Source: a virus (Duplodnaviria; Heunggongvirae; Uroviricota; Caudoviricetes). Taken from it: a DNA stretch of 4,649 nucleotides. Position numbers and translations under genes: made by a program. The first letter of the stretch is position 1. Every line of letters starts with the position of its first letter. This document shows positions 2,706 to 3,067 of the stretch, one piece after another. The stretch lies in the IMG/VR virus record IMGVR_UViG_2706794670_000004; one strand, given 5' to 3'. A model generated the notes under the pieces. That model was given only the letters and a program-made list of their open reading frames with translations, did not search any database and was not told the origin of the DNA.

Positions 2706-2832
2706 TTGTCGTATGCACGCGCACATCTGAATTATGGTGGGGCGCATGGGGGAGCTGAAAAGCTCGCCGGTCGGTTTCCCGGTAGTTCCAACCCTGTGCG
2801 TCTCACCACCCGATGATTGGAACCTGACGGTG

Positions 2833-2861
2833 TTGACAGTTTCAGGTTTGCAGTTTACATT
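2833..2861 (+). promoter_or_regulatory. second sigma70-like promoter candidate in the leader
   Basis: Consensus -35 TTGACA (2833-2838), 17-nt spacer, -10 TACATT (2856-2861, 4/6 match). Confidence 0.3.
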
Positions 2862-2896
2862 TCCCCGCGGTGCTCAAAACACCTCGAAAGCGGTAT

Positions 2897-2924
2897 CCAC
2901 ACCCGATAGCCATGTGGTTTTTTT
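2897..2924 (+). terminator. weak terminator-like hairpin plus T7 run
   Basis: CCACA (2897-2901) pairs with TGTGG (2913-2917) around an 11-nt loop, followed by TTTTTTT (2918-2924). The stem is short (5 bp), so this is a marginal call. Confidence 0.25.
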
Positions 2925-3067
2925 GTGTCCAGAATTCTTGGTTTATGACCGGGTGTGCGGCTAATACAATACCAGCAATGGAAATACGCCCGCCGACTTT
3001 CGACGGTTTTGAGCGCCCGGTCACCCTCTCAAAAGGGGTAAATCAAAATATTCGAAAGGACATGTCT

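Follow-up and report, generated by a model that had tools for sequence, protein, structure and literature searches.

Two stacked antisense RNA modules as a probable immI-type switch ahead of an ORF6N antirepressor gene in a lambdoid prophage

Phages P1 and P7 carry an immunity region, immI, in which a structured antisense RNA acts on the ribosome-binding site (RBS) leading to an antirepressor. Here we describe a locus of related layout in a Caudoviricetes record of IMG/VR (IMGVR_UViG_2706794670_000004); the whole stretch of DNA analysed, 4,649 nucleotides (nt) long, is referred to as the window. It covers the late-regulatory region of a lambdoid prophage, in which a 480-bp gap separates the gene for the antiterminator Q from a gene for an ORF6N-domain protein of antirepressor type. 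This gap (2588-3067) probably constitutes an immI-type post-transcriptional switch for the ORF6N antirepressor, made of two stacked antisense modules of one design. The evidence consists of matches to covariance-model families, exact complementarity of sites, co-variation of loop, leader and RBS sites, conservation of promoter, terminator and type of cargo gene, and a mosaic join between the modules.

In immI of P1 and P7 (P51 - a1 b1 - c4 - a2 b2 - icd - ant), as in the window, a structured RNA some 80 nt long shares a transcript with the targets to which it is antisense, and two of its unpaired segments, a' and b', are complementary to one upstream and one downstream pair of sites (a1/b1 and a2/b2). 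Also common to both are a downstream b site through which the RBS leading to the antirepressor is occluded, and a specificity that shifts by a few co-varying nucleotides. According to the summary of Citron & Schuster 1990/1992 and Hartmann 1995 given in PMC5320573, b' of the P1/P7 c4 RNA occludes the RBS while a' binds upstream. The window differs from immI in the absence of icd, in its cargo (ORF6N and not Ant1/2), in its position within a lambdoid prophage directly after Q, and in having two tandem modules, of which the one adjoining the cargo uses an RNA of the sRNA-Xcc1 family, which is placed outside the C4 clan in Rfam 15. Rho-dependent polarity in the C4 system was reportedly studied by Biere, Citron & Schuster in 1992.

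The region isrK - orf45 (STnc1160) - anrP - isrJ of Gifsy-1 shares with the window the order antQ/Q, promoter, IsrK with terminator, C4-type region and antirepressor. In Gifsy-1, IsrK is complementary to downstream RNA and activates translation of the antirepressor in trans, orf45 is translated and its translation is required for anrP expression, and an RNA of about 80 nt (STnc1160) is processed from orf45, of which the nucleotide sequence is conserved and the peptide is not (PMC4825925). Counted on the isrK transcript, orf45 has start codons at +107 and +119 (Hershko-Shalev et al. 2016, PMC4825925); ATG 2734 and ATG 2746 of the window coincide with these two. Within the a1:a' duplex of the window, 2655:2789 and 2658:2786 are the collinear counterparts of the base pairs G28-C162 and G31-C159, which were proven by compensatory mutation (PMC4825925). 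C4, P1, icd, immI and RNase P are not mentioned in PMC4825925; we infer that orf45/STnc1160 is a C4 RNA and IsrK its a1b1 decoy. The window differs from Gifsy-1 by about 250 nt (a second promoter P2, leader 2, terminator 2 and the Xcc1-type RNA) inserted between the C4 region and the antirepressor. In addition, the frame equivalent to orf45 does not extend to the antirepressor start but stops at 2964, 100 nt short of it.

CI of the satellite phage P4, with seqA and seqC, resembles the window in that a processed immunity RNA has one upstream and one downstream complementary site in the same transcript, and SeqA has been regarded as a structural homologue of IsrK by the IsrK authors (PMC4825925). 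Unlike the mode proposed for the window, CI causes premature transcription termination of replication genes and not occlusion of an antirepressor RBS; no sequence or Rfam match to it is present in the window.

The sRNA-Xcc1 family (RF02221) has the closing stem, two hairpins, unpaired junction and CACCC tail that are seen in the window RNA. In 2011 it was reportedly described by Chen et al. as an integron small RNA (sRNA) of Xanthomonas campestris. Published descriptions present it as an integron-borne, HrpG/HrpX-controlled, trans-acting sRNA linked to virulence. The window copy differs from these, since it stands in an immI-like module before an antirepressor gene and not in an integron cassette. 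In one study an Xcc1 RNA was noted upstream of an ORF6N gene in APSE phages, with no conclusion drawn, and in the literature searched, where C4 and sRNA-Xcc1 are mentioned together, no connection is made between the two families. The control principle proposed here is classical. In the literature searched we found no account of an Xcc1-class RNA in a C4-like role, of its companion leader or of tandem stacking.

Module 2 and homologues of its antisense RNA

The window was scanned against Rfam 15, with the curated gathering score as threshold. Four families exceeded it (Table 1); their matches lie on the + strand and run isrK/c4-a1b1, C4, Xcc1 from 5' to 3', and about half of the segment 2706-3067 is taken up by two structured RNA genes, C4 and the Xcc1-type RNA. 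The first-pass annotation had described this segment as a leader with a promoter, a hairpin with a run of seven T, and a direct repeat, and had pointed to a structure search in Rfam. Its coordinates are exact and the search returned isrK, c4-a1b1, C4 and sRNA-Xcc1; the segment is indeed non-coding, yet it is no anonymous leader, the two RNA genes having been overlooked, as was a second repeat pair (TCGAAAG twice, CTCAAAA twice) that belongs to the second RNA and stands beside the correctly noted GATTGGAACC pair. In Rfam consensus, the C4 and Xcc1-type RNAs share one architecture, in which a long stem encloses two internal hairpins, an unpaired junction follows on the 3' side of hairpin 2 and the RNA ends in a (C)CACCC tail.

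Table 1. Features of the gap between Q and the ORF6N gene, with positions counted on the window
Feature	Position	Strand	Basis
PR'/PisrK promoter, TTGACC-18-TATATT, directly after the Q gene	2592..2621	+	promoter scan
c4-a1b1 motif	2615-2667	+	Rfam, 50.1 bits (gathering 46.7)
IsrK-type short RNA	2628..2704	+	Rfam isrK, 77.5 bits (gathering 50)
a1 target site TTGGAAC, in hairpin loop of IsrK	2653-2659	+	site match
b1 target site GAGACCG, in IsrK	2668-2674	+	site match
tR' terminator, stem 2683-2699, T-run to 2704	2683-2704	+	terminator scan
C4 antisense RNA	2730..2813	+	Rfam, 71 bits (gathering 45), full-length model match
C4 hairpin-2 loop b', TCGGTTTC	2771-2778	+	fold
C4 unpaired junction a', GTTCCAA	2785-2791	+	fold
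Second GATTGGAACC copy, core TTGGAAC (2817-2823) as a2 site of C4	2815..2824	+	site match
P2 promoter, TTGACA-17-TACATT, predicted start near G2869	2833..2861	+	promoter scan
Leader 2, candidate IsrK analogue, 56 nt	2869..2924	+	fold, alignment of 40 leaders
Leader 2 hairpin GGTG-CTCAAAA-CACC, presenting a1 GCTCAAAAC (2872-2880)	2869-2883	+	fold
Leader 2 b1, TCGAAAG	2884-2890	+	site match, linker position in fold
Invariant CGG of leader 2	2891-2893	+	alignment of 40 leaders
Terminator 2, CCACA 2897-2901 / TGTGG 2913-2917, 11-nt loop, T7 2918-2924	2897-2924	+	fold
sRNA-Xcc1-type antisense RNA, C4-like architecture, 3' tail CACCC	2947..3030	+	Rfam, 77.4 bits (gathering 53)
Xcc1-type hairpin-2 loop b', CTTTCGA	2997-3003	+	fold
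Xcc1-type junction a', GTTTTGAGC	3006-3014	+	fold
a2 CTCAAAA, on antirepressor mRNA	3028-3034	+	complement of junction a'
b2 TCGAAAG, overlapping Shine-Dalgarno AAGGA (3056-3060) of ORF6N start 3068	3052-3058	+	complement of loop b'
ORF6N-domain antirepressor-type gene, regulated cargo	3068..3631	+	Pfam ORF6N, 8.8e-21

Besides matching the sRNA-Xcc1 model, the RNA of module 2 has the pairing partners that are characteristic of immI. Its loop b' (CTTTCGA) pairs with 2884-2890 and with 3052-3058, and its junction a' (GTTTTGAGC) with 2872-2880 (GCTCAAAAC) and with 3028-3034; loop and junction are thus complementary both to sites in a leader and to sites at the antirepressor RBS, and these sites co-vary. 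TCGAAAG and its complement together occur four times in the window, a number reached in none of 200 shuffles. The fourth of these, a TCGAAAG copy, is found inside the Q coding sequence (2312-2318); it is probably due to chance, and could in principle be an extra pairing site for the Xcc1-type loop. RNAduplex gave z-scores of -5.7 for Xcc1 with leader 2, the only pair to stand out, and an uninformative -0.9 for C4 with IsrK by a method that opens all intramolecular structure, and pairing of RNA and target was judged by exact complementarity and co-variation instead of by these energies. The 5' edge at 2946/2947 is a conserved U(-1)/G(+1), and this edge, together with an ACC(C) tail at the 3' end, would fit an RNase P substrate.

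The three sites change together in relatives. The loop, leader site and RBS site read CTTTCGA, TCGAAAG and TCGAAAG in the window and CTACTGA, TCAGTAG and TCAGTAG in EC12, the closest locus in a complete Escherichia coli genome (83% identical to the window); in TL-2011c the loop is CTACTTG and the leader and RBS sites are both CAAGTAG. A wider comparison was obtained by a pattern scan of viral contigs, in which 120 stretches yielded 83 non-identical loci with a closing stem; 73 of these remained after filtering by fold energy, and removing redundancy in the loop region left 60. All 20 viral homologues that were re-scanned against Rfam score 59-80 bits as sRNA-Xcc1. A three-way match, in which at least 7 nt of the 3' half of the RNA are complementary to both the upstream and the downstream flank, was present in 63% of the 60 viral loci, compared with 6.6% when RNA and flanks were paired across loci, and more than 40 different site sequences were found among them. 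The stem of hairpin 2 also covaries, with double changes per pair in 14-27 of 52 sequences. The genes next to Xcc1 modules belong to the Rha, P22_AR, Bro-N, AntA, KilA-N and ORF6N families and are almost always of antirepressor type, as is the protein under C4 control in P1.

In species-representative genomes, among the matches listed, 37 of 65 structure-filtered copies have a three-way match, typically fused to the Shine-Dalgarno (SD) sequence, GGAG; the locus titles among these matches include Pasteurellaceae, Neisseria, relatives of Desulfovibrio, Erwinia, Edwardsiella, Oxalobacter, Legionellales and alphaproteobacteria. High expression with hardly any ribosome coverage has been reported for an Xcc1 homologue in E. 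coli O157:H7 EDL933 (PMC5331693).

An alternative that we consider unlikely is that the Xcc1-type RNA is a trans-acting sRNA for host or plant genes, as in Xanthomonas and Xylella, and that its adjacency to ORF6N is incidental. This would agree with the published integron-borne, HrpG/HrpX-controlled descriptions and with the Xanthomonas/Luteimonas copies among the matches listed, in which flanking complementary sites are lacking. However, the loops of phage copies match their own flanks far more often than those of other loci, and the gene that follows, with the downstream site fused to its SD, is nearly always of antirepressor type. Three Xcc1-like copies (L144, L199 and L224) lack the flanking complementary sites typical of phage-borne copies; two of them, L144 and L199, carry the titles Luteimonas and Xanthomonas, genera related to the organism of the family's first description. 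The integron-borne form may have been released from a role in a cis-acting module.

The second promoter, leader 2 and open reading frames

Upstream of the Xcc1-type RNA, the hexamers of P2 (TTGACA 2833-2838, TACATT 2856-2861) are separated by a 17-bp spacer and match the consensus at 10 of 12 positions. In EC12 both hexamers are identical despite about 17% divergence, and TL-2011c has TTGACA-18-TATATT at the same position. A promoter match of at least 10/12 is present at the equivalent position in 48% of the 60 viral loci (1.1% of background windows), and a T-run with at least 7 T in 8 positions in 50% (5.6% of background). Among 40 aligned leaders, the terminator hairpin ahead of the T-run is kept with 22 distinct stems, and a stem of at least 5 bp, scored per sequence, was found in 68% compared with 11% of shuffles. 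Because promoter, T-run and hairpin recur at the same position in homologous modules, P2 and terminator 2 are regarded as exceeding chance. The layout of promoter, leader and terminator precedes Xcc1-type RNAs in dozens of unrelated phage contigs.

Since the first pair of target sites lies between the P2 start and the hairpin with its T7 run, P2 and terminator 2 appear to delimit a leader that carries the upstream copies of the targets, and leader 2 would be a positional and logical analogue of IsrK. In the first-pass annotation the pair of promoter and hairpin had been read as a second short terminated transcript, an attenuator-like leader or an alternative PR'/tR'. The first of these looks real given the recurrence of the layout, and the promoter hexamers, on whose conservation it had been made to depend, are kept in EC12 and have an equivalent in homologous modules. 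An alternative PR'/tR' is not supported, as the unit is independent of Q and forms part of the antisense module that precedes the antirepressor gene. Likewise, P2 was considered as a Q-dependent alternative late promoter and rejected, the same module being found without a neighbouring Q gene: in TL-2011c, where Q is far away, module 2 has its own promoter after a complete isrK-C4-rha module.

Terminator 2 was not called by the simple terminator scan because its 11-nt loop exceeds the loop limit of 8. Leader 2 has no Rfam match at E<=1. RNAalifold, run on a MAFFT alignment of the 40 leaders, returned only the pairing CGG:CCG, variable spacers shifting hairpin 1 and the terminator out of register, and for this reason the terminator was scored per sequence and no covariance model was built. 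The CGG that follows b1 and the terminator loop CCCG(A/T)(C/T)AG may form a small H-type pseudoknot with the terminator stem, or may represent a recognition motif. In a single homologue among the 40 leaders (L091) both motifs are swapped to CCG...CGG (window equivalent 2891-2910).

It is quite improbable that P2 and terminator 2 are chance consensus matches, that all transcription comes from PR' and that 2706-3067 is simply the 5' untranslated region of ORF6N. In favour of such a passive spacer, a promoter scan of 2400-3300 returned two sites against 1.0 +/- 1.0 in shuffles, the P2 match alone being not significant, the hairpin at 2897-2924 was not called, and the fold of leader 2 is weak (-8 kcal/mol). 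It is contradicted by the hexamers preserved amid the divergence of EC12, by the enrichment of promoter and T-run at the same distance before Xcc1 RNAs of unrelated contigs, by a terminator stem that persists through 22 variants, and by the promoter that TL-2011c retains for module 2 behind a complete rha gene.

The only long open reading frame (ORF) in the gap runs from ATG 2734 to TAA 2964 (76 amino acids). A Pfam search with it gave no match and its counterpart in EC12 encodes an unrelated peptide of 44 amino acids, in line with the earlier statement that 2706-3067 contains no convincing ORF. A second upstream frame, from ATG 2945 at the 5' edge of the Xcc1-type RNA, is free of stops and reaches ORF6N in frame (2945-3070), which resembles the upstream-ORF arrangement of orf45/anrP and icd/ant. 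In EC12 the frame from the 5' edge of the Xcc1 RNA ends at a TAG inside b2, 10 nt ahead of the ORF6N start; this frame is not conserved (compare L002 3327-3473).

A translation-coupled attenuator, in which the ATG 2734 frame would be translated as an orf45 homologue of 76 codons, ribosome movement through P2, leader 2 and terminator 2 would control expression and the antisense RNAs would be secondary, is very unlikely. Gifsy-1 orf45 is translated and needed for anrP expression, both AUGs stand at conserved positions here, and the frame stays open for 76 codons across terminator 2. On the other hand, length and peptide are not conserved and a Pfam match is lacking; the frame ends 100 nt before the ORF6N start, and coupling of the AUGA type seen in Gifsy-1 is therefore impossible. 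The AUG would also suit RNase P cleavage of C4, for which a U(-1)/G(+1) edge is expected.

Module 1 and its direct repeat

Module 1 combines an IsrK-type RNA and a C4 RNA, and is homologous to isrK-orf45/STnc1160 of Gifsy-1 and to c4 of P1. The IsrK-type RNA (RF01394) matches the family model, has its own promoter directly after a Q-type gene and ends in a Rho-independent terminator, while the orf45 stop that overlaps the antirepressor start in Gifsy-1 has no equivalent in the window. A promoter of PR'/PisrK type also precedes isrK in L004 and TL-2011c. The C4 RNA (RF01695) matches its model, folds with a minimum free energy of -44.9 kcal/mol, and carries a' and b' segments complementary to the upstream a1 and b1. 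Its AU|GG at the 5' edge (GGW motif) and CCACCC tail are hints, from sequence alone, at processing by RNase P.

The direct repeat GATTGGAACC occurs at 2651-2660 and 2815-2824; two copies were found in none of 200 shuffles. Its 7-nt core TTGGAAC is the exact complement of the C4 junction GTTCCAA (2785-2791), which lies between both copies and is the single occurrence of the reverse complement. The C4 loop TCGGTTTC pairs with GAGACCG of IsrK (2668-2674), one G.U pair included.

The a site differs among relatives and is in each case complementary at all three places. It is TTGGAAC in the window and in EC12, where the loop pair is altered to TCGAAAC / GTTTCGA; TTTGCAC in PhiR12_1, present twice with GTGCAAA and accompanied by TCAACC twice with GGTTGA; TTGGCGT in L004, twice with ACGCCAA and accompanied by TCACCG with CGGTGA; and TTGCTAC in module 1 of TL-2011c, twice with GTAGCAA and accompanied by AATCGAGG / AATCAAGG with CCTTGATT. 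As complementarity to C4 is maintained through different sequences in these four relatives, the GATTGGAACC repeats are predicted RNA target sites of C4, not protein sites. The first-pass annotation had left the choice between a repeated protein-binding site and coincidence, neither of which agrees with complementarity to an unpaired C4 segment that co-varies in four relatives; of the conservation it expected in related prophages, position and complementarity are kept and the sequence itself varies.

It is extremely improbable that GATTGGAACC and TCGAAAG, each present twice, serve as operators to which a DNA-binding protein (the prophage repressor, Q or the antirepressor, for example) attaches. 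Operators typically take the form of direct repeats around promoters, and one GATTGGAACC copy lies 9 bp upstream of the P2 -35 hexamer, but each repeat has a third, reverse-complementary copy in the unpaired part of the RNA gene between its copies, all three co-vary in relatives, the downstream TCGAAAG overlaps an SD sequence and not a promoter, and more than 40 site variants, nearly one per lineage, fit RNA-RNA specificity and not a conserved protein.

In intact modules (PhiR12_1, TL-2011c) b2 stands about 25 nt after a2 and is continuous with the SD sequence ahead of an antirepressor or rha gene. In the window, the a2 of module 1 stands without b2 or a gene; a search for b2 (GARACCG) downstream of 2824 returned only the 5-nt GACCG in the Xcc1 closing stem, judged to be chance. 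The homology of the window to intact C4 modules ends near 2842, and BLAST matches to phages and E. coli genomes split into 2605-2842 and 2869-3051. By these observations module 1 is cut short on its 3' side and joined to a second module; it is a truncated member of the C4 family that has lost b2 and its own cargo gene and retained a2, with the join between 2843 and 2868. An exact match to the junction 2833-2861 was not found in the species-representative genomes scanned. In TL-2011c both modules are complete and stand in series, isrK-C4-rha followed by P2-leader-Xcc1-ORF6N. Another antirepressor, encoded by this prophage or a different one, may be the target of the C4 RNA of module 1.

Proposed switch and genomic context

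In the design proposed for each module, a promoter would be followed by a short terminated RNA with a1/b1, a processed antisense RNA with a'/b', and a2/b2 at the antirepressor RBS. Module 1 would then read PR', IsrK (a1b1, tR') and C4, and module 2 would read P2, leader 2 (a1b1, terminator), Xcc1-type RNA, a2, b2/SD and ORF6N. If the precedent of P1 C4 and Gifsy-1 IsrK holds, transcripts that pass terminator 2, whether from P2 or from read-through of PR', would serve as precursor, from which the Xcc1-type RNA would be cut out. The mature RNA is expected to pair with a2 and b2 and to block translation of ORF6N, keeping the antirepressor silent in the lysogen. Leader 2, with a1 in a loop and b1 single-stranded in the linker, would compete for the antisense RNA and could switch the antirepressor on, so that the ratio of termination to read-through at terminator 2 would set the balance of decoy and repressor. 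In lytic growth, Q-modified polymerase from PR' may read through both terminators.

Several points weigh against this interpretation. Module 1 lacks b2 in the window and in EC12, where a2 is retained as well. P2, terminator 2 and RNA processing at the locus are predictions, and the decoy role of leader 2 is assigned by analogy with IsrK. Terminator 2 has a short stem (5 bp) besides its 11-nt loop and was not called by the scan, and the weak fold of leader 2 (-8 kcal/mol) has been mentioned above. About one third of the Xcc1 homologues have no three-way match that reaches 7 nt, and in the Xanthomonas/Luteimonas copies among the matches listed none reaches 6 nt. Finally, an antisense model leaves two conserved elements unaccounted for, the CGG that invariably follows b1 and the terminator loop CCCG(A/T)(C/T)AG.

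Beyond this locus, it appears somewhat likely that sRNA-Xcc1 is mostly a second structural class of C4-like phage immunity RNA. Its unannotated companion motif (promoter, a1 hairpin, b1, CGG, terminator with a CCCG(A/T)(C/T)AG loop) would be the analogue of IsrK/c4-a1b1 and act as a built-in decoy, Gifsy-1 IsrK would likewise sponge the C4 RNA (STnc1160) in orf45, and modules of different specificity could be stacked before one antirepressor. Three separately named families, IsrK, C4 and sRNA-Xcc1, would in this way be linked in one regulatory design. Many of the sRNA-Xcc1 entries annotated in enterobacteria, Pasteurellaceae, Neisseria, Desulfovibrio and other groups may then mark phage immunity modules and not virulence sRNAs, and their variable 7-9-nt sites would represent a readable immunity code predicting cross-immunity of prophages. 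Antirepressors decide whether a prophage stays silent, and the present one is placed after Q and ahead of the late genes in a lambdoid prophage, a kind that carries Shiga toxin genes in relatives; two orthogonal switches would offer exact, testable base pairs for turning it off and on.

The genes of the window are ordered DnaB-like helicase, small ORF, RusA, Q antiterminator, the 480-bp gap, ORF6N protein, an N-masked stretch and four transfer RNA (tRNA) genes. The Q protein matches PF06530 in Pfam (2e-52). The viral contig L028 is identical to the window over the regions compared. The run of N at 3663-3919 (257 nt) lies between two copies of a perfect 14-bp palindrome, TTTACGATCGTAAA (3649-3662 and 3920-3933). 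L028 has a single copy of TTTACGATCGTAAA with nothing inserted. It follows that the N stretch is one of three things: an insertion that duplicated 14 bp, a gap in the scaffold between contig ends that overlap, or an element masked on purpose.

In L004, which has the stacked order isrK-C4-Xcc1-ORF6N of the window, an isrJ RNA follows the ORF6N gene as in Gifsy-1 (101.7 bits, L004 662-736, - strand). No isrJ match was found after the ORF6N gene of the window (position 3934-4005), where a GC-rich hairpin and T-run at about 3976-4003 are present instead; these could end a different small transcript. Downstream of the antirepressor gene, at 4092-4402, four tandem tRNA genes have the anticodons CAT, TCT (Arg), TGT (Thr) and TCC (Gly). 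In Stx phages, ileZ-argN-argO occupy the corresponding position, upstream of the toxin and lysis genes. One further carrier of an Xcc1 module, viral contig L029, has three CRISPR-DR4 repeat matches about 1 kb off (2202-2349, - strand), possibly a phage-borne mini CRISPR array.

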